From positions 70,037-134,036 of the forward strand of contig DATIKU010000034.1 of NCBI GenBank assembly GCA_035477215.1: 64,000 nucleotides of DNA. The letters run 5' to 3'. The position numbers and the translations under genes were made by a program. This document shows, piece after piece, positions 2,908 to 42,051 of the stretch. The stretch comes from Spirochaetota bacterium (lineage in GTDB: Bacteria; Spirochaetota; UBA4802; UBA5368). Every line of letters begins with the position of its first letter. The first letter of the stretch is position 1. The notes under the pieces are model-generated. The model made no database searches, was not told where the DNA came from, and was given only the letters and a program-made list of their open reading frames with translations.

Positions 2908-3567
2908 ATGCCGTCTTTCGGCATCGAGCGGGAATTGTTCGAGCAGGGTTATCGGCGCATAGCCGGTGTCGATGAGGTCGGCCGGGGCGCTCTTGCGGGG
3001 CCCCTCTGTGTGGGTCTGGTGATGTACTCTCCAGAGGTGCTCGCGGGCCCGCCGGCCGCACTCCTTTCGTCCGTCAACGACTCCAAGAAACTGACGCATC
3101 CTGCCCGCCTGCGCGCCTGTGGACACATCAGCCGAAGCGCCATGTGCGTCCGCACCGCGATGGCCTCCCATAGGACAATCGACCGGCTTAACGTTAACGG
3201 CGCCACCGAGTACCTCCTGAGTAAAATCATAACCGAACTGGCCGAGCCGCCGGACGTTGTCATCATGGACGGCCGTTTCTCCTTTTCTCCCGGCGTGCGC
3301 TTTGTCGCGGTAAAGGGGGGGGATTCGCGTTCCATCAGCATCGCCTCCGCGTCGATCGCGGCCAAAATACACAGGGATGGCATACTCGAAAAATTTGATT
3401 TGCTATTTCCCGGCTACGGTTTTAAAAAAAATAAAGGCTATGGGACGCTCGAGCACAGGGAATCCATCGGGCGTATCGGTCCATCGCCGGTGCACCGCCG
3501 AAGTTTCGCTCCTCTGCGCGACATGGCGTGCCGGGAGGATCTTTTCGCATGCCATGAAGATCGATAA
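2908..3567 (+). CDS. rnhB: ribonuclease HII
   Basis: GVDEVGRGALAGPL active-site motif; start refined to the ATG at 2908 (the track ORF extends upstream into rplS in the same frame). Confidence 0.9.
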   Translation: MPSFGIERELFEQGYRRIAGVDEVGRGALAGPLCVGLVMYSPEVLAGPPAALLSSVNDSKKLTHPARLRACGHISRSAMCVRTAMASHRTIDRLNVNGATEYLLSKIITELAEPPDVVIMDGRFSFSPGVRFVAVKGGDSRSISIASASIAAKIHRDGILEKFDLLFPGYGFKKNKGYGTLEHRESIGRIGPSPVHRRSFAPLRDMACREDLFACHEDR

Positions 3568-4636
3568 CGCCGCCACCATTACCGTAACGGGGAAGGGGAG
3601 CCTGGTGGAGGCTTTCCGGGGCCTTAGAAAGGGCGGAGAAATCGGCGCCAGGATAGTTGATCGTATCGACACTCATCGGGCGGTCATCGAAGTGGCGGGC
3701 CGGCGCATTACCGCCGGCTTTGTGCAGGGGCTTCCTCCGGGTAATCTTCTGACGCTGGTGCTTGAAAAGAGGAGTGGGACGACGCTGGTGTTCAGGCTCG
3801 CGACGGCCGATCCGCAGGCCGCCGGCCGGGAACGCCTGCTTGGCTATACCGCTTTTGGCCGGGCCGATAATGCAGGAATTCCCTTCGCGCGCGCATCGTC
3901 GGACGGGATTTCGGGCGTATATGCGTATAACAGCCTGCTTTTCAGGCTGGCCGGTGGAGTCGAGAAAAAGGGAACGTTGGTGAACGTGTTGAACGCGCTT
4001 GCCGCCAGGGGCATAAAAAAAGAGCAATTGCTGTTTTTTTCTTTCCTTTTTTCTGATTTTGAAGGTATTAATCTAAACTGCCTTGTTTCTGTCCTGGCAA
4101 TTTCTGACAGGGAGGGGCGGCGGCGGCACAACCAATCTTTGAAAAGCTTTGCCGAATACACGCGTTCCGGGGAGGGGTTGGACGGCATTCTCAACACGCT
4201 GGATGAGCTCGCCGGGGAGGATTCCGGCGGGGGTGAGTTGTTGCGGCAACTGCTCCTGGCCCTTCGCGATGGGGGGGAGGCGGCGGATATTCGGGCCAAA
4301 AACGGCGTATTTTACTATTTCGACGACGGTTTTAAAGAGGCCCATTACATAGGTAGCACGGACGCCATTGTGGCCCTGGTGGATTTTTCGAAGATAGGAC
4401 GCGTGGAGGTGCTTGCGAAAGACCGTGACGGCCGAATAAACATCGACGTTTACTGCGAAAATGAGGCCCTTCGCGCCGAATTGGGCGCCGAAGCGGAGCG
4501 CCTCACCGGCACGATAGGTGAAGCACTCGGTCGTGGCTGTTCGCTTTCCGTCAGCGTAAGCGCCCAGGCCGTTTTAAACATTCGTTCGCTCGGAGCGCTC
4601 CTTTCCCAGGGTGGCGAGTTCGATGCGCGGGCGTAA
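3554..4636 (+). CDS. hypothetical protein, YlqG-like (possible FliK-like hook-length-domain protein)
   Basis: 361 aa from the ATG at 3554, overlapping the rnhB stop by 14 nt; same position as B. subtilis ylqG after rnhB; no confident motif. Confidence 0.5.
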   Translation: MKIDNAATITVTGKGSLVEAFRGLRKGGEIGARIVDRIDTHRAVIEVAGRRITAGFVQGLPPGNLLTLVLEKRSGTTLVFRLATADPQAAGRERLLGYTAFGRADNAGIPFARASSDGISGVYAYNSLLFRLAGGVEKKGTLVNVLNALAARGIKKEQLLFFSFLFSDFEGINLNCLVSVLAISDREGRRRHNQSLKSFAEYTRSGEGLDGILNTLDELAGEDSGGGELLRQLLLALRDGGEAADIRAKNGVFYYFDDGFKEAHYIGSTDAIVALVDFSKIGRVEVLAKDRDGRINIDVYCENEALRAELGAEAERLTGTIGEALGRGCSLSVSVSAQAVLNIRSLGALLSQGGEFDARA

Positions 4637-4910
4637 AGGGGCCGAAAAACTGAGTATCGCCCTTGCATACTCTCCGGCGGACGAGGCCCCGCGCGTTCTG
4701 GCGAGCGCGAGGGGATACCTGGCCGAGCGGCTGGAGAGAATGGCGCGGGATCACGGCGTCGAAGTATACGCCGACGCGGATCTCGCCGGTACGCTTTCGG
4801 CTTTGGACACGGGCAGCCTCGTGCCGCCTGATCTCTACAGGGCTGTTGCGGAAGTGCTGGCGTATTGTTACAGGATTAATGAGCGCTTGAAAGAGAAACT
4901 TGCGGAATAA
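4611..4910 (+). CDS. FlhB C-terminal-domain-like small protein (YlqH/EscU family paralog)
   Basis: 99 aa; EKLSIALAYSP...GVEVYADADLA...LYRAVAEVLAY resembles the FlhB_C autocleavage-domain family; overlaps the upstream ORF by 26 nt. Confidence 0.65.
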   Translation: MASSMRGRKGAEKLSIALAYSPADEAPRVLASARGYLAERLERMARDHGVEVYADADLAGTLSALDTGSLVPPDLYRAVAEVLAYCYRINERLKEKLAE

Positions 4911-4922
4911 GGGAATTAGGGA

Positions 4923-6113
4923 ATGGCGGGAACCATGAAGAAAATCCCGGTTGAGGAACTCAAGCCGGGCATGCGGTTTGACAAACCGGTCTATATCGAC
5001 AGCAATAACATGCTCGTAGGCGCGAACGTCACCATCAAGGAGGGCGATATCAAACGGCTGATGAAGTGGGGCATCAGCGAGATTGAAACGCTCGGCAACA
5101 TCTCCTCAAGCGAAGACGACATGCGTTTTGCCCAGAAAATTGACGCGTCGATTTCCGCCGACGCCAAAAAAATAGTCGACCAGTACAGCCTTCTGCTGCT
5201 CAAACGGAAGGAATTTATGGATGTCCATCGCGAGGCCTGCCGGGTGGTGGGTGACGTCTACACCGCGATCAAGAACGACGAAATGTTTACCACCGATTCC
5301 ATCGAGGGCGCGGCAAGGAACATTTTAAGGCTCATGGAAGATGACAATAATATCGTCCTGTTCCTCTATGGGCTGGAGGAGGGCAAAAACTACCTGGTGG
5401 CGCACTCGGTCAACGTCACCTTCTACGCACTTCTCGTCGGTACGGCGCTCAAGTACACTCAGGAAAAGATTCGGGAGCTCGCCCTGGGCACGCTCCTTAT
5501 CGACGCGGGCATGGTGAAGATGCCGGCCTATATCGCGTACAAGCAGTCGAACCTCAGCGACCACGAGTTCAACCTCATCAAGACGCACCCGCTGCATGGA
5601 TACCGGCTCATCAAACAGCTCGGCAAAGTTCGTGAAAAGAGCGCGCTTGTGTGCCTGCAGCATCACGAGTACTTCGACGGCAAGGGATATCCCCGCGGCC
5701 TCAAGGGAAACCAGATTGACGAATACGCGCGGATAGCCGCAATCGCCGATTCGTACGAGGCGCAGATCTCGAGCCGGAGCTACAGGGAGAAACAGTCGTT
5801 TTATCACGCCATGAAAAACCTCCTTTCGAGCGGGGTTAACAGGTTCGACCCGGTGATACTCCGTGTCTTCCTTTCCAAAATGTCGGTTTACCCGATCGGC
5901 TCGCTGGTTGAGCTCAGTGACGGCGGCGTGGGTCTGGTAATCGGCTCGGTGCCGAGGAAGCCGTTGCGCCCCATCATCAAGCTGATATTCGACAGTGAGA
6001 AAAACAGGCTTTCCGATCTCATCATCATCAATCTGCTCGATGAAACGGCGCTTTTCGTAAACCGCGTGCTCGACGAAAAGGAAGCCGGCGTAAGTCTCCT
6101 CGACGTTCTTTGA
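4923..6113 (+). CDS. HD-GYP domain phosphohydrolase (c-di-GMP phosphodiesterase family)
   Basis: THPLHGY...LQHHEYFDGKGYPRGL is the HD-GYP signature. Confidence 0.8.
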   Translation: MAGTMKKIPVEELKPGMRFDKPVYIDSNNMLVGANVTIKEGDIKRLMKWGISEIETLGNISSSEDDMRFAQKIDASISADAKKIVDQYSLLLLKRKEFMDVHREACRVVGDVYTAIKNDEMFTTDSIEGAARNILRLMEDDNNIVLFLYGLEEGKNYLVAHSVNVTFYALLVGTALKYTQEKIRELALGTLLIDAGMVKMPAYIAYKQSNLSDHEFNLIKTHPLHGYRLIKQLGKVREKSALVCLQHHEYFDGKGYPRGLKGNQIDEYARIAAIADSYEAQISSRSYREKQSFYHAMKNLLSSGVNRFDPVILRVFLSKMSVYPIGSLVELSDGGVGLVIGSVPRKPLRPIIKLIFDSEKNRLSDLIIINLLDETALFVNRVLDEKEAGVSLLDVL

Positions 6114-6545: not shown

Positions 6546-6770
6546 ATGAGGTCCAGAGACCAGCTCATGGAGGAGCGGGCGACCTTAACGCAAGGAGTGC
6601 ACCATATGAAGACTCTCATGAACAAGGATGATCGTGAGAAAAAGCCGGGATCCCTCCGCGGCGATCCAAAAAAGATAGAAGAATATCGAAAACGTATTTC
6701 CGATGAGACGTATCTGGAACACGCCATAAACAGGATAGCGACCGATCTGTCTCATTATCTCACGAAATGA
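6546..6770 (+). CDS. small hypothetical protein, weakly FlgM-like (real start may be the ATG at 6606)
   Basis: C-terminus ...YRKRISDETYLEHAINRIATDL loosely resembles the FlgM anti-sigma-28 C-terminal helix; no RBS verified. Confidence 0.25.
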   Translation: MRSRDQLMEERATLTQGVHHMKTLMNKDDREKKPGSLRGDPKKIEEYRKRISDETYLEHAINRIATDLSHYLTK

Positions 6771-6815: not shown

Positions 6816-7979
6816 ATGATTGAAAAGACCGATTCCTACATGAACCTGCAGCAGAACAAGAAGCTTAAGTACCTCTTTCTGGCTTTGTTCTCGCTGCTGC
6901 TCTTTTCCATGGCATACATCTTCCAGTATTATTTCTGGCCGCTTCTTTTTGCACTGGTCATTTACATCGTCCTGTCGCCGATGCACGATTTCATTGGCAG
7001 GTTTGTAAAGAGGAAGTCGCTGTCGGCGTCGATCATGATGCTGCTTCTCATCCTCGGCTTTCTCGTGCCGCTTTTTTTCCTGCTCCTGAGTCTGGCCGAT
7101 CAGAGCTACGATTTGTACCAGTTCGTCGAGAAAAAATTCAAGCCAGCGATGATGGATGAGTTCTTTTACCGCAGCAATTTTATCGTGGAGCTTGCGAACA
7201 GCCTGCGGATTTCCCGCGGAGATCTGATCAAGAAAACGACTGAGGTGATGCAGGGTGCGGCGTTTTCGTTGTTCCGGAACCTCACGGACCTTCTAACCTT
7301 TTCGATCAAGTTTTCGATCAACTTATTCTTCATGCTGCTCATTCTCTTCTTCCTTTTCATAGAGGGCGGCAAGTTCAAGGAGACGATCTACCGGGCGAGT
7401 CCTTTTCCCAAGGACATCGAGAACGATATAGCCAACCGGCTCAAGGAAGTCATAAAGGTCCTCATCGCCGGAAATTTATTGATCATGCTGCTTCAGGGGG
7501 GCATGGTGGGGCTGGGCTTCTTTATCGCCGGACTCGACGGGCCGCTTCTTTGGGGAAGCGTTGCCGCCGTTTTCTCGCTCGTCCCGGTAATCGGGACGTC
7601 GATTACATGGATACCGGCGGCGTTTTATCTGTTTGCGGTCGACCGCGTCGGCTGGGCGATCTTTTTGCTCGCCTGGGCAATTTTCTGGAACCTTCTTCTT
7701 GAAGACCTTTTAAAGCCGAAGGTCTTCGGCGAGCGGCTGAATTTTCATCCCCTTATTTTCTTCTTGCTGCTCCTGGGCAGCCTTCAGGCTTTCGGCCTGT
7801 CGGGGGTCATTGTGGGGCCCATACTCCTGACGCTTTTCTACTCGTTCCTGGAGATTTACCGGGTGCTCGATGAGTACGATACAAGGCAGGCGGCCCGGGA
7901 CCGTGACGGTCAGGCTGCGGACGTTTCGAGTAAAGGCCCTAGTGCCGGTCGCCGGGATCGAGGGAGCCGTCGTAAATAG
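6816..7979 (+). CDS. AI-2E family transporter (PerM/UPF0118)
   Basis: Polytopic membrane protein with ...LVPVIGTSITWIPAAFYLF... typical of AI-2E/UPF0118. Confidence 0.85.
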   Translation: MIEKTDSYMNLQQNKKLKYLFLALFSLLLFSMAYIFQYYFWPLLFALVIYIVLSPMHDFIGRFVKRKSLSASIMMLLLILGFLVPLFFLLLSLADQSYDLYQFVEKKFKPAMMDEFFYRSNFIVELANSLRISRGDLIKKTTEVMQGAAFSLFRNLTDLLTFSIKFSINLFFMLLILFFLFIEGGKFKETIYRASPFPKDIENDIANRLKEVIKVLIAGNLLIMLLQGGMVGLGFFIAGLDGPLLWGSVAAVFSLVPVIGTSITWIPAAFYLFAVDRVGWAIFLLAWAIFWNLLLEDLLKPKVFGERLNFHPLIFFLLLLGSLQAFGLSGVIVGPILLTLFYSFLEIYRVLDEYDTRQAARDRDGQAADVSSKGPSAGRRDRGSRRK

Positions 7980-8880
7980 TGAAGCGGTTTTTTCCATTCC
8001 CCTTGCTGCAATAGAGCGCGCGGTCCGCCTTCTTGATAAGGTCTATTCTGTCCATGGCATGGTCGGGGAACGAGGCGATTCCGATCGAAAGGGTGATGTT
8101 CTGTGCGACCGGGGGGTAGTTGTTGGATGAGACGGCGTCCAGTATGCGCTCGGCGACGCGCGTGGATTTTTCTACACCGGTCTCCGGAAGGATGATTCCG
8201 AATTCCTCGCCCCCGTAACGGGAGACGGTATCATGACTGCGGCAGGCCTTTATGATGTTCGATGATATCTTCTTGAGGACCATATCCCCCGTCTGGTGCC
8301 CGTAATTGTCGTTGACCGCCTTGAAGCCGTCTATGTCCGCCATCATAATCGTAAGGCTTTCCTTCTTGCGCTGGGAATACAGCATCCCTCGCTCGAGACT
8401 GTCCTGGAAATACTTGTGATTGAACATGCCGGTGAGCGCGTCGGTGAGGGACATGCGGAAGTAGATGTCCCGCTCGCGGGCGGCCTTGATGAGCTCTTTG
8501 CGCTCGAGCGTTTTTTGTATGATTATGTCAAGATGCTCGAAGTTGATAGGTTTACTGATGTAATCGATGGCGCCCGCCCTCATGAACGACACCGCCGACT
8601 CGATGGAACCGAAGCCGGTAATCACGATGATGTCGATGTCGGCGTTGATGGATTTGATCTTCTCGAGCACCGCCATCCCGTCCATGCCCGGCAGGTGAAT
8701 GTCCGTTATGACGATGTCGTACTCGCGGCTTCCGATCAGGAGGATGCCATCCTCTCCGCTGTCGGCCGTATCGACGGTGTGGCCGGAACGGTCCAGGAAT
8801 TTCTTTACGACCCTGGTTACGCCGCTGTCGTCGTCGATAAGGATGATGCGTCCCTTGCCGCTACCTTCCGGCCTGAACAT
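7939..8880 (-). CDS. response regulator with receiver plus GGDEF diguanylate cyclase domain (PleD-like)
   Basis: N-terminal REC (ILIDDD...DIHLPGMDG); C-terminal GGEEF motif (RYGGEEFGIIL) with a predicted I-site. Confidence 0.9.
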   Translation of the reverse strand: MFRPEGSGKGRIILIDDDSGVTRVVKKFLDRSGHTVDTADSGEDGILLIGSREYDIVITDIHLPGMDGMAVLEKIKSINADIDIIVITGFGSIESAVSFMRAGAIDYISKPINFEHLDIIIQKTLERKELIKAARERDIYFRMSLTDALTGMFNHKYFQDSLERGMLYSQRKKESLTIMMADIDGFKAVNDNYGHQTGDMVLKKISSNIIKACRSHDTVSRYGGEEFGIILPETGVEKSTRVAERILDAVSSNNYPPVAQNITLSIGIASFPDHAMDRIDLIKKADRALYCSKGNGKNRFTIYDGSLDPGDRH

Positions 8881-9652
8881 TGGCTTGTTCCTTTTTCATT
8901 ATGAACAGGTAATTAAAACCCCGAAGGAAGAAGTTGCCTTCCTCGGCCGCCCCGTGATAATTCCCCATCTTGAGGGTCTTGTTGTGCCGCGTTACGGCGA
9001 TTATATCGACCGGGGTGAAGCGTTGCGAGAGAATGCCAAACAGGTCGAAGCCGATGGGGATAAAGCCCTTTTTCCGGTGATAGTAGTCACAGACGTAGAG
9101 GGCCATGTAGCGGTCGCTTTTCAGTACGCGGTCGATCTCGCCGATCACGCCGCCCATCGCGGTTAAGTAACCCGGGTCGGCCGCGTTGATCCTGCCTATG
9201 CAGTCCTTCGCGTCGGAGTATTCAATGTTGTCGCCGTACGGCGGATCGACGAAGACGAAATCGGCCTTTTGGTTCTCAAGGGGGAGCTTCCTGGCGTCGG
9301 CCCGGTATACATCGCTTCTGACAGGGTGTATGTCGTAACCGAGGACGCGGCGGCCCGTGTCCCTGCACACGTCGATCGTCGTTCCGCTGCCGCACATGGG
9401 GTCCACCACGAGCTGCCCTTCTTTTGTATAGCGCGCGAGAACATTCCAGATGATGTAGGATGGGGTGGCGCCCGGGTAGTTCTGGTCACCCTGCTTTCCC
9501 CTGCCGTAATTCTGGGAGGGGTAATTCCAGAGTGTGGTTGTTTGAATGCGCAGCGAAGGTTTGTTCATCTCGTTTTCTGGCACGTTAAGGAGTCGTTTCA
9601 AGGGAGGAGGCATTTCCCAGTTCCTCCGGAGGAGCGTATCGCCCGTCACCAT
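8861..9652 (-). CDS. SAM-dependent methyltransferase with DPMCGSGTT (motif I) and DPPYG (motif IV): UPF0020/Trm11-like RNA m2G type or N6/N4 DNA methyltransferase
   Basis: VVDPMCGSGTT...DFVFVDPPYGDN; motif I precedes motif IV by about 50 aa; no THUMP domain; stop lies inside the start of the downstream GGDEF gene. Confidence 0.6.
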   Translation of the reverse strand: MVTGDTLLRRNWEMPPPLKRLLNVPENEMNKPSLRIQTTTLWNYPSQNYGRGKQGDQNYPGATPSYIIWNVLARYTKEGQLVVDPMCGSGTTIDVCRDTGRRVLGYDIHPVRSDVYRADARKLPLENQKADFVFVDPPYGDNIEYSDAKDCIGRINAADPGYLTAMGGVIGEIDRVLKSDRYMALYVCDYYHRKKGFIPIGFDLFGILSQRFTPVDIIAVTRHNKTLKMGNYHGAAEEGNFFLRGFNYLFIMKKEQANVQAGR

Positions 9653-9815
9653 GATTTGTAAAGGAGTTTTTTTGATTTAATATAATCATTGACATATATG
9701 GTCGTGGGAATAAAGAAAACTGTTTCGAGTTTTCGCTCCTGCGGCTGTTTCCATGGAACAAGACCACCAGAATTTATACAAGTTATCACCGGTCGATAAA
9801 AATAAAGGCGGGAGG

Positions 9816-12794
9816 ATGGTAATGTCCATAACCAGAAGGGATTTCCTCGGGCTGTCCGGCGTAACGGCGGCGGGGGCTTTCTTCGGCGGGGTATCGTTCC
9901 TCAGCGGATGCAAGTCCGCGCCGGACAAGCTGCAGGGGACTCGTGAAAGCACGACGATTTGCCCCTATTGCGGAGTCGGGTGCGGCCTTATTGTTTCCGC
10001 CAGGAATGGGAAAGTCGTCAATATCGAGGGTGATCCGGATCATCCTATAAACCAGGGTTCCCTCTGTTCGAAGGGCAGCGCGCTCTTCCAGATCTCCGAC
10101 AATCCAAGAAGACTGTCGAAGGTCCAGTACAGAAAGCCGTACGGCACGGAATGGGAGGAGATCTCCTGGGACCAGGCCGTCAAGATGATCGCGCGAAGGG
10201 TCAAAGACACCCGCGACGCGACCTTCATCGAAAAGGAAGGCGACGTTACGGTTAATCGCTGCGCGGGAATCGCGAGCCTGGGCGGTGCCGCGCTTGACAA
10301 CGAGGAGTGTTACACCCTCTCGAAATTCGCGAGGATGCTTGGAATAACCTACCTGGAGCATCAGGCTCGTATTTGACACAGCGCGACAGTCGCCGGTCTG
10401 GCGGCTTCCATCGGTCGTGGCGCGATGACCAATCACTGGAACGATATCAAGAATTCGGACGTCATCCTTATAATGGGGTCGAACGCCGCGGAAAACCACC
10501 CCATCTCATTCCGCTGGGTTCAGAAGGCCCAAGAGGAGCGCGGGGCGAAGCTCATCGTCGTCGATCCCCGTTTCACCAAATCGGCCTCGCTGGCGGATCT
10601 TTACGCACCGCTGCGTCCGGGCTCGGACCTGGCCTTCCTGGGCGGAGTTGTCAACTACGCCCTCGGGAATGAGCGGATTCAGAAGGAGTACGTTGTTGAA
10701 TATACCAACGCGGCGTACCTGATAAATCCCGAATTCAGGTTCAACGATGGCCTCTTCAGCGGTTATGACGGAAGCAAGAAGAGTTACGACAGCAAGACCT
10801 GGGCGTACCAGCTTGACGACAAGGGCATTCCGAAGCAGGACAGAACCCTCAAGGACCCCAATTGCGTCTACCAGCTCATGAAGAAGCATTATGCCCGCTA
10901 TACGCCGGAGAAGGTGGAGCAGTCGACCGGATGCCCGAAAGAGTCTTTCCTCAAGGTGGCCGAGCTCTTCACCTCCACGCACAAGCCCGACAGGGTGGCG
11001 ACCATCCTTTACGCCATGGGGACCACGCAGCACACCGTCGGGACGCAGAACGTGCGTATCTTCGCGATCCTGCAGCTCCTCCTGGGGAACATGGGCCTTG
11101 CGGGCGGCGGCATCAACGCGCTTCGGGGCGAGTCCAACGTGCAGGGTTCCACCGACGCCGGACTGCTCTGGCACATCCTGCCCGGCTATATTCCCGCGCC
11201 GGTCGCCAAAAAGCACCCCAATCTCGAAGCCTATATCAAGGCGACCACGCCCAAGACCAACGATCCGCGAAGCATCAACTGGTGGTCGAACAGGCCCAAG
11301 TATCTCATCAGCATGCTCAAGGCCTGGTACGGCGACGCCGCGACGAAAGAGAATGACTTCTGCTACGACTGGCTGCCCAAGGCGCACAAACCGGTCCCGT
11401 ATATCACGCTGTTCGAGGACCTGTACGCCGGCCGGCTTAAGGGGGCCATCTACATGGGGACCAACCCGATCGTCGGCGGGCCAAATTCCAACCGCACGGC
11501 GAAGGGTATGGAAAAGCTCGACTGGCTGGTGGCCGTGGACCTGTGGGAAACCGACTCCTCGATATTCTGGAAGCGTCCCGGCGCCAATGCCGCTCAGATA
11601 AAGACCGAGGTCTTTCTCCTTCCGGCGGCGGCGTCATTCGAGAAAGAGGGAAGCGTATCCAACTCGGGACGCTGGGCGCAATGGCGTTACAAGGCGCAGA
11701 ATCCTCCCGGCGTGGCCAAGAGCGACCTCGACATGATAGACCTGATTTACCGCGAGCTTAAGGGTCTCTACCAGAAGGAGGGCGGCAAGTTCGCCGATCC
11801 CATCCTCAAGCTCGTATGGAACTACACCGAGCCCGGCGAACACGAGGCCAGCCCGCATCTGGTTGCGAAGGAGATCAACGGATTCGATTACAAGACAAAA
11901 AAGCAGATGTCGACCTTCATGGACCTCAAGGATGACGGTTCGACCGCCTGCGGCAACTGGATTTACAACGCCAGCTACACCGAGAAGGGCAATATGATGG
12001 CCCGCCGCGGAGCCAGGGACGCCTCCAATAAGATTGGGATGTATCCGGAGTGGTCGTGGTGCTGGCCGCTTAACCGGCGCATCCTCTACAACCGTGCCGC
12101 CGTCAATCGCGAGGGAGAGCCCTGGGACAAGAACCGCTGGGTCGTCAAATGGACCGGCAGCGCATGGAAAGGAGACGTGGTGGACGGCGGGCCGAAGTTC
12201 GGTCCTGACGCCAAAAATCCATTTATAATGAACGCCGAAGGCGTGGGCAGGCTGTTCTCGAAGGACCTTGCCGACGGCCCGTTCCCCGAGCATTACGAGC
12301 CGATGGAAACGCTGACGGCGAACCTGTTTAACTCGCAGAAGCTCAACCCCGCCGTGCAAATACATGACACGCTGAAGGGCGATTTCAACGATGCGGCCCG
12401 CTATCCGTATATCGCCACCTCGTACCGCGTCGTGGAACACTGGCAGGCCGGCGCAATGACCCGCAACCTCCCGTGGCTCGCCGAGTTGGTTCCGGACATG
12501 TTCTGCGAAATCAGTCCATCGCTCGCGAAAGCTAAGGGTTTCAAACACGGCGACAAGGTTCGGATTTTCAACTCGCGCGGCGCCATCACGGCTTACGCGC
12601 TGGTGACCGAGAGAGTACAGCCGCTTAAAGTGCAGGGAAGGATGGTGGAGATGGTCGGTATGATCTGGCACTTCGGACACGGATGCGGTGTGTCCGGCGA
12701 CAGCTGTAATCAACTCACGCCGAGCATCGGGGACCCCAACACTGACATCCCCGAGTATAAGGCATTTCTGGTGGACATCAGGAAGGAGGCGTAA
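9816..12794 (+). CDS. fdnG: formate dehydrogenase catalytic subunit, selenocysteine-containing (in-frame TGA at 10374-10376 read as Sec), with Tat signal
   Basis: Twin-arginine signal TRRDFLGLSGV; the two track ORFs (9753-10376, 10425-12794) are in the same frame, split only by a TGA inside the conserved ...EHQARI-U-HSATVAGL... motif of FdnG/FdhA; GGAGG RBS before the ATG at 9816. Confidence 0.85.
10388..10406 (+). promoter_or_regulatory. SECIS-like hairpin 11 nt downstream of the Sec UGA of fdnG
   Basis: AGUCGCC-GGUCU-GGCGGCU, a 7-bp stem with a GGUCU loop at the spacing expected for bacterial SECIS elements. Confidence 0.45.
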
Positions 12795-17958: not shown

Positions 17959-17964
17959 GTTATG

Positions 17965-18037
<73 letters not shown>

Positions 18038-41856: not shown

Positions 41857-41902
41857 AATTAAATTGACAAATACCGTGCGTCATTTATAGGGATGTATCC
41901 TT

Positions 41903-41986
41903 GCCGCGATGGCGGAATTGGTAGACGCGCCAGGTTCAGGGTCTGGTGGGCGTACGCCTGTGAGGGTTCAAATCCCTCTCGCGGCA
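41903..41986 (+). tRNA. tRNA-Leu (anticodon CAG)
   Basis: GCCGCGATGGCGGAATTGGTAGACGCGCCAGGTTCAGGGTCTGGTGGGCGTACGCCTGTGAGGGTTCAAATCCCTCTCGCGGCA; long variable arm; anticodon loop TTCAGGG. Confidence 0.85.
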
Positions 41987-42051
41987 AAGGTTTTTTTCCT
42001 CTTTCAGGCGACATCAGAAAACCCGTAAAAATCAGGTTGTGATCCTCCCCC

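Follow-up and report, generated by a model that had tools for sequence, protein, structure and literature searches.

Does the close association of a methyltransferase gene with a gene for a diguanylate cyclase mark a dedicated regulatory or epigenetic module, as a preliminary description of this DNA had proposed? In the window, by which we mean the entire stretch of 64,000 nucleotides of Spirochaetota DNA analysed here, both genes lie on the minus strand. The methyltransferase (235 aa) occupies positions 8861..9568, and the response regulator with REC and GGDEF domains (PF00072 and PF00990; 313 aa) occupies positions 7939..8880.

The gene pair and its expression signals

The longest possible methyltransferase ORF extends from 9652 to 8861 on the minus strand (263 aa) and had initially been taken as the gene, but homologues and in-frame stops in relatives place the true start at ATG 9568. 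The ATG at 9652 was ruled out because, in four close relatives, in-frame stops interrupt the extension upstream of ATG 9568; an alternative start at Met13 with a GGAGGA box was likewise discarded, given in-frame stops in relatives and homologues that begin at Met29. In the frame of the response regulator, the ATG at 8880-8878 is the earliest start codon of any kind, and none follows before the receiver domain begins. Since the methyltransferase ends with the TAG at 8863-8861, the two coding sequences overlap by 20 nt (8861..8880, minus strand), as first described. The identical overlap from ATG to stop is kept in five independent related loci (L001, L008, L009, L010 and L011) and, judged from these sequences, is not a product of chance. 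The pair is flanked by genes for an AI-2E transporter (convergent), UPF0102/YraN, an HD-GYP protein and a divergent selenocysteine formate dehydrogenase; as noted before, neither a restriction endonuclease nor a histidine kinase is present among the genes flanking the pair in the window.

Upstream of the methyltransferase, an A-tract followed by a TTTACA box (9657..9673, minus strand; TTTACA at 9662-9657) is likely to be the -35 element of the operon promoter: the motif AAAAA..TTTACAAA shows no variation across the nine upstream regions aligned (alignment A2). A candidate -10 hexamer, TACGCT (9633..9638, minus strand), can be read 18 nt downstream of TTTACA, and the closest relatives carry similar TAnnnT hexamers; a consensus promoter scanner did not call it. 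A Shine-Dalgarno-like AAGGAA box for the cyclase (8888..8893, minus strand) is located 7 nt before ATG 8880 and within the 3' end of the methyltransferase gene, and a box of the form AAAAAGGA(A/G)AA is kept in L001, L008-L011, L094 and L095. An Rfam search of the window returned two tRNAs only, and no c-di-GMP riboswitch or other regulatory RNA.

These signals suggest how the operon may be expressed. Transcription probably starts from a sigma-70-like promoter (A-tract and TTTACA, 18 nt, TACGCT) and yields an mRNA with a leader of about 55 nt, from which the methyltransferase would be translated first. Ribosomes ending its translation would then, aided by the AAGGAA box, start anew at the ATG that lies 20 nt before its stop, so that the cyclase would be made in step with the methyltransferase. 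Co-transcription and translational coupling of the two genes are our reading of the sequence. Of the fusion in expression that the preliminary description had claimed, the overlap stands and is kept in relatives; the coupling mechanism itself is deduced from the sequence.

The cyclase gene encodes what appears, from its motifs, to be a canonical and active-looking single-receiver enzyme. Its receiver domain (aa 12-119; 8524..8847, minus strand; PF00072, 95.3 bits) comprises the acidic pocket D16-D18, the phospho-acceptor D60, T88 and K110, and its GGDEF domain (aa 145-299; 7984..8448, minus strand; PF00990, 147.6 bits) contains a GGEEF active site (aa 223-227; 8200-8214, minus strand) and, five residues upstream, an RxxD inhibitory site, RSHD (aa 214-217; 8230-8241, minus strand). 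The D/T/K triad, GGEEF and RxxD are all intact, which confirms the REC-GGDEF assignment. The earlier label "PleD-like" is not retained: the protein scores 210 bits with the PleD model NF007135 (cut-off 474) and 164 with the DgcR equivalog (cut-off 500), and because it has one receiver domain only it is WspR/DgcR-like and not PleD-like. Once phosphorylated at D60 by a kinase, the enzyme would dimerise and make c-di-GMP at GGEEF more readily, with product inhibition exerted through the RxxD site.

Distribution of the pairing among genomes

The methyltransferase-cyclase pair was found only in the window and in L001/L002, L008-L011 and L093-L095, all of which share one syntenic block (fdhBA / MT-RR / AI-2E, sORF, UPF0102, HD-GYP, FlhB-like ...) and belong to one sub-lineage of uncultured Spirochaetota. 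The pair extends to methyltransferase relatives of 69-75% identity, as traced via cyclase homologues, and persists down to 61% cyclase identity. Within the pair-bearing loci the ten-gene neighbourhood is fully conserved, and the conservation of the pair thus does not exceed that of the background synteny. The junction varies among loci, which show an overlap of 20 nt or of 50 nt, a gap of 1 nt or TGATG.

Outside these loci the two genes occur apart. Cyclase orthologues at 50-54% identity (L098, L099) retain the right-hand block and have a divergent, unrelated gene upstream, where a methyltransferase is absent; the conserved partners of the cyclase are the right-hand genes, namely those for the AI-2E transporter, the small ORF, YraN, the HD-GYP phosphodiesterase and flagellar-export-like proteins. 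Conversely, a GGDEF neighbour is absent at about 75 other methyltransferase loci (spread over spirochaetes and eight or more further taxon labels), among them the closely related spirochaetes L013, L014 and L016, of which L013 retains fdh and the methyltransferase. The occurrence of the cyclase block without the methyltransferase, and of these methyltransferase loci without GGDEF, indicates that the junction is a secondary juxtaposition that was subsequently co-transcribed. We thus regard it as probable that the two-gene operon results from a lineage-specific rearrangement and is not a dedicated methylation/c-di-GMP module.

The translational coupling would be explained by a true functional module, with DNA or RNA methylation mechanistically tied in this lineage to signalling by c-di-GMP. 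A module of this kind would fit the overlap or tight junction, which at least nine loci retain down to the limit of cyclase identity given above, as well as the operon's own conserved promoter box and the HD-GYP phosphodiesterase in the same block. We nevertheless consider such a module very unlikely, since the synteny extends equally over the ten genes, each partner occurs without the other, and junction geometry is variable. The regulatory or epigenetic module of the preliminary description is therefore not upheld: the pairing is restricted to one spirochaete sub-lineage in which the whole block is syntenic, and it is not kept in most of the methyltransferase family. Given its persistence among diverged cyclases, co-expression may still bring a selective benefit within the sub-lineage.

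The rearrangement illustrates that a gene for a response regulator, once deprived of its own start region, can end up translationally coupled to any gene landing upstream; in itself, the operon changes little. A farther-reaching proposition would be that a global methyltransferase family with one invariant target has its synthesis stoichiometrically tied to a c-di-GMP synthase here. We hold this to be unlikely; if true, a Dam/CcrM-like motif in DNA or a universal position in rRNA/tRNA could be the invariant target, and this spirochaete lineage would regulate its methylation capacity together with c-di-GMP signalling.

Class, spread and substrate of the methyltransferase

The unusual part of the locus is only the strong cross-phylum conservation of the methyltransferase. 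Its sequence matches that of P0001, "DNA methyltransferase [Spirochaetota bacterium]", at 100% identity. As described before, the protein contains DPMCGSGTT and DPPYG, which are 52 residues apart (about 50 in the earlier estimate). By alignment and motif position, the former is motif I, the SAM-binding loop (aa 56-64; 9377..9403, minus strand), and the latter motif IV, the catalytic motif for exocyclic-amine methylation (aa 108-112; 9233..9247, minus strand), in which D108, P109, P110 and Y111 are invariant. In beta-class enzymes a HPTQKP-type motif X precedes motif I. Its equivalent here is GATPS (aa 33-37; 9458..9472, minus strand), identified by HMMER alignment to CcrM (6pbd), and G33, A34, T35, P36 and S37 are invariant in alignment A1.

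Motifs and profiles predict a SAM-dependent exocyclic-amine methyltransferase of nucleic acids, and to this extent the earlier reading was right. The earlier comparison of its motif spacing with Trm11/UPF0020 enzymes (PF01170) is not borne out by HMM classification, which assigns the protein to PF01555 (75.6 bits, cut-off 26.7; 74.8 bits for the 235-aa form) in two out-of-order stretches, against 32.4 bits over the whole protein for PF01170 (cut-off 22.3), with no single stretch significant and matches confined to the motif I/IV regions. None of the curated equivalog models reached its family cut-off: TIGR01177 scored 28.4 bits (cut-off 316.55), Trm14 (Trm14_Arch) 19.3 (cut-off 280) and the CcrM model NF050803 33.1 bits (cut-off 830). 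On these profile scores the protein is not a standard Trm11/UPF0020 enzyme.

The motif order, X/I (aa 33-64) followed by IV (aa 108-112), is opposite to the IV-TRD-X/I order of the beta class, and the closest PDB sequence relatives, beta-class DNA methyltransferases, are each matched as two non-collinear pieces. Swapping the halves in silico yields one collinear PF01555 match (positions 2-213/221, 81.3 bits), which identifies the protein as a circularly permuted amino-methyltransferase of the beta type. The family would accordingly derive from the beta-class DNA N6/N4 amino-methyltransferases by a circular permutation that put the SAM-binding half first, with loss of the recognition domain. 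A target recognition domain, which in the beta class lies between motif VIII and motif X, is absent, the protein stopping about 10 residues past the last conserved core strand (…NYLFIMKK), and the core family length is 227-235 aa. The profile search gave no match to a THUMP or other RNA-binding domain, in line with the preliminary description, and only about 30 residues precede the core. A conserved C-terminal segment, RHNKTLxMGN...NFFLRGFNYLFIM (aa 194-224; 8897..8989, minus strand), is marked by invariant residues in A1 and may represent a candidate substrate-binding loop that stands in for the recognition domain; AlphaFold pLDDT is below 50 over aa 194-216 despite the strong conservation there.

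The family is single-copy and chromosomal, with 60-75% identity across phyla and 83 invariant columns among 19 cross-phylum sequences (A1). It is shared by Planctomycetota, Hydrogenedentota, Nitrospirota and part of the Spirochaetota, a patchy distribution across phyla; all of the 80 best genome loci are from uncultured genomes. Members of one phylum largely group together in the tree, from which the family appears to be inherited mainly by vertical descent. It has no fixed partner gene: an all-against-all clustering of three genes on each side of 87 loci recovered lineage-level synteny only, and no neighbour family is common to more than six of 83 loci, save for a loose receiver-domain cluster. 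Recurrent neighbours by Pfam are functionally unrelated (DHH/DHHA1, TruB, DeoC, radical SAM, RuvC, ADH). Cluster names are "DNA modification methylase" or none, and our literature searches found no paper on the family.

One might suppose the gene to be what remains of a restriction-modification system or of a mobile element, a solitary Type II methylase without cellular role. Its matches to PADLOC Type II methyltransferase models (best PDLC03376, 74.8 bits) and its collinear distant relatives, some with ParB_N/HTH_ParB domains and others on conjugative plasmids and annotated as DNA adenine methylases, could be read in this way. Yet no restriction endonuclease, integrase or mobile-element gene was found in the inspected loci, the phage matches amount to five weak ones, plasmid matches reach only 26-29% identity, and both the phylum-coherent tree and the very high conservation speak against a leftover, which we regard as extremely unlikely. 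Membership in a defence system was rejected, the PADLOC models being generic ones only, as was a phage origin, on account of the few weak matches.

For the derived beta-type enzyme preferred here, the methyl group of SAM would most likely be transferred via DPPY to the exocyclic amine of a nucleic-acid base, and the target would be one and the same in all phyla. A review of such methyltransferases cautions that neither sequence nor fold tells apart enzymes acting on DNA, on RNA or on protein, and gives HemK as an example (PMC7544214). In the present case we slightly favour DNA adenine over an RNA base, giving DNA about an even chance and an RNA base a tangibly smaller one. Counted toward a DNA enzyme were the preference for PF01555 over PF01170 and the relatives that bear ParB_N/HTH_ParB domains or lie on plasmids. 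Other observations run against a DNA substrate. The best fold matches, which are collinear, are the tRNA m2G enzymes Trm11, TrmN and Trm14; some planctomycete homologues have K/R- or RGG-rich tails; and in some Phycisphaerales loci the gene has TruB as a neighbour or overlaps, by ATGA, a preceding NrnA-like DHH gene. The identity across phyla is, to our knowledge, far higher than among DNA methyltransferases that differ in specificity.

A housekeeping RNA enzyme, for example a tRNA/rRNA m2G or m6A methyltransferase whose linkage to the cyclase is incidental, would act in a THUMP-less, Trm11/TrmN-like manner on one universally conserved RNA site. Extreme conservation largely along phylum boundaries would fit this, as would the missing restriction endonuclease, the near absence of the family from phages, the basic or RGG-rich tails, the DHH and TruB neighbours, and the name "TRM11 family SAM-dependent methyltransferase" given by NCBI to one member. 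On the other side, the profiles clearly prefer DNA methylase models, TIGR01177 and Trm14 remain far below their cut-offs, RNA-binding domains are missing, collinear relatives are fused to DNA-binding ParB/HTH domains, and the patchy distribution is odd for a core RNA modification; we consider this explanation possible but somewhat doubtful.

The broader interest lies in a family of amino-methyltransferases of about 230 aa without recognition domain, circular permutants of the beta class that are structurally Trm11-like. Thousands of "DNA methylase" annotations would gain a function once their substrate is identified, which would also show whether a beta-type enzyme has moved to RNA in bacteria. 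A shift to RNA in eukaryotes is known from MT-A70.

Comparison with known systems

The closest sequence relatives of the methyltransferase are enzymes of the beta class of DNA N6-adenine/N4-cytosine methyltransferases (PF01555), which we take to include CcrM, M.MboIIA, M.RsrI, TTHA0409 and DpnA. Features in common are motif IV (DPPY) and the helical segment that follows, the "ATPS" resembling motif X, and motif I (DPxxGSGTT). Unlike these enzymes, the methyltransferase has motif I before motif IV, lacks a target recognition domain, and is an orphan that is far more conserved across phyla. It likewise differs from CcrM/Dam-type orphans, whose equivalog models, including that of CcrM (33 against 830), remain far below cut-off, and from Type II restriction-modification systems, as an adjacent cognate restriction endonuclease gene is missing. 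With Trm11, Trm14 and TrmN (PF01170, UPF0020) it shares the fold of the catalytic domain, but not a THUMP or N-terminal RNA-binding domain.

The orphan "DNA adenine modification methylase" of Vibrio conjugative plasmids (for example WP_069541838.1) is collinear over 94% of the query and therefore has the same permuted order, and it likewise has no adjacent restriction endonuclease. Its identity is no more than 26-27%, however, its length is greater (296 aa), and it is located on a mobile element, whereas the family described here is chromosomal.

The cyclase resembles WspR and DgcR in its succession of REC, helical linker and GGDEF and in its intact catalytic and regulatory motifs. It scores below the equivalog cut-offs, lacks an adjacent cognate kinase, and differs from PleD, which has two receivers, by its single one.

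The gene pair and its surroundings

Because ATG 9568 corresponds to the first residue of all homologues and of a database protein identical to the product, and four close relatives carry in-frame stops upstream, we take this codon as the true start of the methyltransferase (235 aa) and reject the 263-aa form given by the longest ORF (9652 to 8861, minus strand). In the REC-GGDEF (cyclase) ORF downstream (8880 to 7939, minus strand, 313 aa), ATG 8880 is the earliest start codon of any type and the sole one ahead of the receiver domain. With the methyltransferase stop at TAG 8863-8861, the 20-nt overlap reported in the preliminary description is therefore real. An AAGGAA box lies 7 nt 5' of ATG 8880, and the two genes are presumably cotranscribed and translationally coupled.

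An A-tract and a TTTACAAA box 5' of the methyltransferase gene are invariant in all nine pair-bearing loci. We read this box as the -35 element of a putative sigma-70-type promoter, with TACGCT following at 18 nt in the window; a simple consensus scanner made no call at the site. A TTGACA hexamer (9689-9694, plus strand) lies within a ATTCATTGACA box, which several relatives have likewise conserved in front of the divergent formate dehydrogenase genes (fdh). It is probably the fdh -35 element, arranged back to back with the promoter of the methyltransferase.

Pfam annotation of the neighbouring genes gives a convergent AI-2E transporter, UPF0102/YraN, an HD-GYP protein and an FlhB-C-like gene, and on the opposite flank a divergent TAT-signal selenocysteine formate dehydrogenase. 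Neither a nuclease nor a histidine kinase is among them, as had been noted for an adjacent restriction endonuclease or cognate kinase. The formate dehydrogenase alpha gene (9753-12794, plus strand), whose product starts with a TAT signal and an Fe4S4 domain, is split into two ORFs of the same frame (9753-10376 and 10425-12794) by an in-frame TGA (10374-10376, …ARI*HSATV…) that almost certainly encodes selenocysteine. The AI-2E ORF (6816-7979, 387 aa) overlaps the convergent cyclase ORF tail to tail by 41 nt (7939-7979); since the proteins of relatives are shorter (351-378 aa), its basic C-terminal tail may be a read-through extension. Between AI-2E and UPF0102, a small ORF (6546-6770, plus strand; 54-74 aa) without Pfam match occupies the same position in all related loci (L001 10812-10976, L095 3258-3422, L098 8133-8297, L099 5454-5618). 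A FliK-like ORF (3377-4636, plus strand; weak Flg_hook match in its L098 counterpart) overlaps a 99-aa FlhB C-terminal-like ORF (4611-4910, plus strand; Bac_export_2). These flagellar-export-like genes stand outside any full flagellar operon and in relatives lie between RNase HII/L19/TrmD and the HD-GYP gene. A whole-window Rfam/ARAGORN scan found no riboswitch, its matches being limited to tRNA-Ala(CGC) (17964-18037, minus strand) and tRNA-Leu(CAG) (41902-41987, plus strand).

Distribution of the pairing and nature of the cyclase

Among 83 non-redundant methyltransferase loci, a REC-GGDEF gene lies directly downstream in the closest relatives only; a loose receiver-domain cluster aside, every other neighbour family is limited to six loci at most. 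A search from the cyclase side widened the pair to orthologues of 61-65% identity directly after methyltransferases of 69-75% identity. All such pairs sit in one block (fdhBA <- / -> methyltransferase-cyclase / <- AI-2E <- small ORF <- UPF0102 <- HD-GYP <- FlhB-like <- FliK-like <- RNase HII <- L19 <- TrmD), with junctions varying by locus (20-nt overlap, 50-nt overlap, 1-nt gap or TGATG). Two related loci, L098 and L099, are decisive on the pairing: their cyclase orthologues (50-54% identity) keep the whole right-hand block, and a divergent transglutaminase-core or hydrolase gene takes the place of the upstream methyltransferase. The locus L013 retains fdh and the methyltransferase without the cyclase, which is likewise absent from L014 and L016, nested within the same methyltransferase clade. 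In the remaining spirochaetes and in every other phylum, the genes beside the methyltransferase are unrelated ones, among them pyruvate carboxylase and RF3, B12-radical SAM, MutY, rhomboid, TetR/RND, DHH/DHHA1, TruB, RuvC and DeoC.

While the overlapping arrangement was described correctly, the interpretation put on it is supported only in part: the pair is confined to the block of one sub-lineage, and a true methylation/c-di-GMP module appears highly unlikely. In the simplest history, the cyclase would be native to the c-di-GMP/flagellar block, the segment with fdh and the methyltransferase would have come to lie beside it in one sub-lineage, and the shared promoter would have arisen after that juxtaposition. 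As an operon, the pair joins two known kinds of gene in an ordinary arrangement specific to its lineage. About 2 kb from the cyclase, the HD-GYP (HD_5) protein (4923-6113, plus strand) is likely a c-di-GMP phosphodiesterase; its gene stays in the cyclase block at every related locus, including those two lacking the methyltransferase, and this block looks like the real functional neighbourhood of the cyclase.

The cyclase matches PF00072 (aa 12-119) and PF00990 (aa 145-299). Its receiver residues are intact (acidic pocket D16-18, acceptor D60, T88, K110), and an RxxD site (RSHD, 214-217) stands five residues upstream of GGEEF (223-227). Judged by its sequence, it is presumably an ordinary, active, product-inhibited diguanylate cyclase, the activation of which would depend on a kinase. 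The former label "PleD-like" does not hold because the protein has just one receiver; it also scores below the cut-offs for PleD (210 vs 474) and DgcR (164 vs 500).

Circular permutation of the methyltransferase

The motifs DPMCGSGTT and DPPYG are spaced 52 residues apart, close to the 50 first estimated, and Pfam finds no THUMP domain, again as first described. PF01555 (DNA methylase N-4/N-6) matches with 75.6 bits but split over two stretches, such that the protein's N-terminal portion pairs with the C-terminal portion of the profile, whereas PF01170 (UPF0020) reaches just 32 bits with no single stretch individually significant. The closest PDB-sequence relatives of the family profile are the beta-class DNA methyltransferases TTHA0409, N4CMT, M.MboIIA, CcrM and DpnA (classes as defined by Woodcock et al. 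2020, PMC7544214), each aligned as two non-collinear pieces (in TTHA0409, chain 28-107 with query 92-170 and chain 230-274 with query 46-90). When aa 88-235 were placed in silico ahead of aa 1-87, PF01555 matched in a single collinear stretch (profile positions 2-213 of 221, 81.3 bits). Together with the two-piece native matches, this shows that the methyltransferase is a circular permutant of the beta class.

By sequence-order structure comparison, the AlphaFold model (pLDDT 77, pTM 0.79) is closest to tRNA m2G enzymes, with generic class I methyltransferases scoring at most 15.8, and on this predicted fold "Trm11-like" is a structurally reasonable label. No curated NCBIfam model attains its cut-off.

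Family and candidate substrate of the methyltransferase

Homologues number 5437 in a word-indexed search (62-100% identity and mostly 227-300 aa for the best 120), and an exhaustive search gave 99 cluster representatives (50% identity) with E <= 1e-30. Relatives occur in at least 435 species (contigs, one genome per species). The best 80 genome loci are all from uncultured genomes, with labels that include Spirochaetota/Leptospirales-like, Planctomycetota (many Phycisphaerae), Hydrogenedentota, Nitrospirales, Desulfobacterota/Deltaproteobacteria and Gemmatimonadota. Phages have essentially no homologues, and a literature search found no publication on the family. The 83 invariant columns among 19 cross-phylum sequences and a neighbour-joining tree largely coherent by phylum point to a family under strong constraint that has for the most part been inherited vertically. 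A decayed restriction-modification remnant is very unlikely. Besides the SAM and DPPY motifs, the top-conserved segment is RHNKTLxMGN...NFFLRGFNYLFIM, partly predicted to be disordered (aa 194-216, AlphaFold model), which may serve as a substrate-binding element. A clade at about 45% identity (P0145 and its cluster) has an N-terminal DCD (Development and Cell Death, PUA-like) domain fused to the same permuted core, and one relative has a LAGLIDADG-like insert.

We favour a nucleic-acid exocyclic-amine methyltransferase that would act on one invariant target. According to a review, the substrate of this enzyme class is not assignable from sequence or fold alone (PMC7544214). DNA adenine, at roughly even chances, comes slightly ahead of RNA: DNA methylases have far stronger profile support, and distant collinear relatives (33-45% identity) have DNA-binding fusions (N-terminal ParB_N/HTH_ParB domains). 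Further collinear relatives, at 26-27% identity, are carried by Vibrio conjugative plasmids as orphan genes named "DNA adenine modification methylase". On the side of RNA, a substrate we consider a tentative but real candidate, stand the ranking of folds, the exceptional conservation, the missing recognition domain and the basic tails on homologues. Such tails, long, K/R-rich or with RGG repeats, N- or C-terminal, occur in several planctomycete and Wallbacteria homologues (P0114, P0083, P0067, P0116) and are absent from the spirochaete proteins. Six Phycisphaerales genomes (L045, L046, L069, L073, L084, L085) have a DHH/DHHA1 (NrnA-like) gene directly 5' of the methyltransferase, with a 4-nt ATGA-type overlap in four and a spacing of 1 nt in L046; five others have a convergent TruB gene downstream. 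Such neighbours, with roles in RNA metabolism, might give a clue to the substrate.

Within the amino-methyltransferase superfamily, this uncharacterised methyltransferase stands out as permuted, devoid of a recognition domain and very highly conserved. It differs from the beta class in its motif order (X/I, then IV-VIII) and in the empty slot of the beta-class recognition domain. Of the Trm11/UPF0020 comparison in the preliminary description, the likeness in fold to Trm11-type enzymes stands, but with no THUMP domain and with equivalog scores under the cut-offs, the protein does not qualify as a member.
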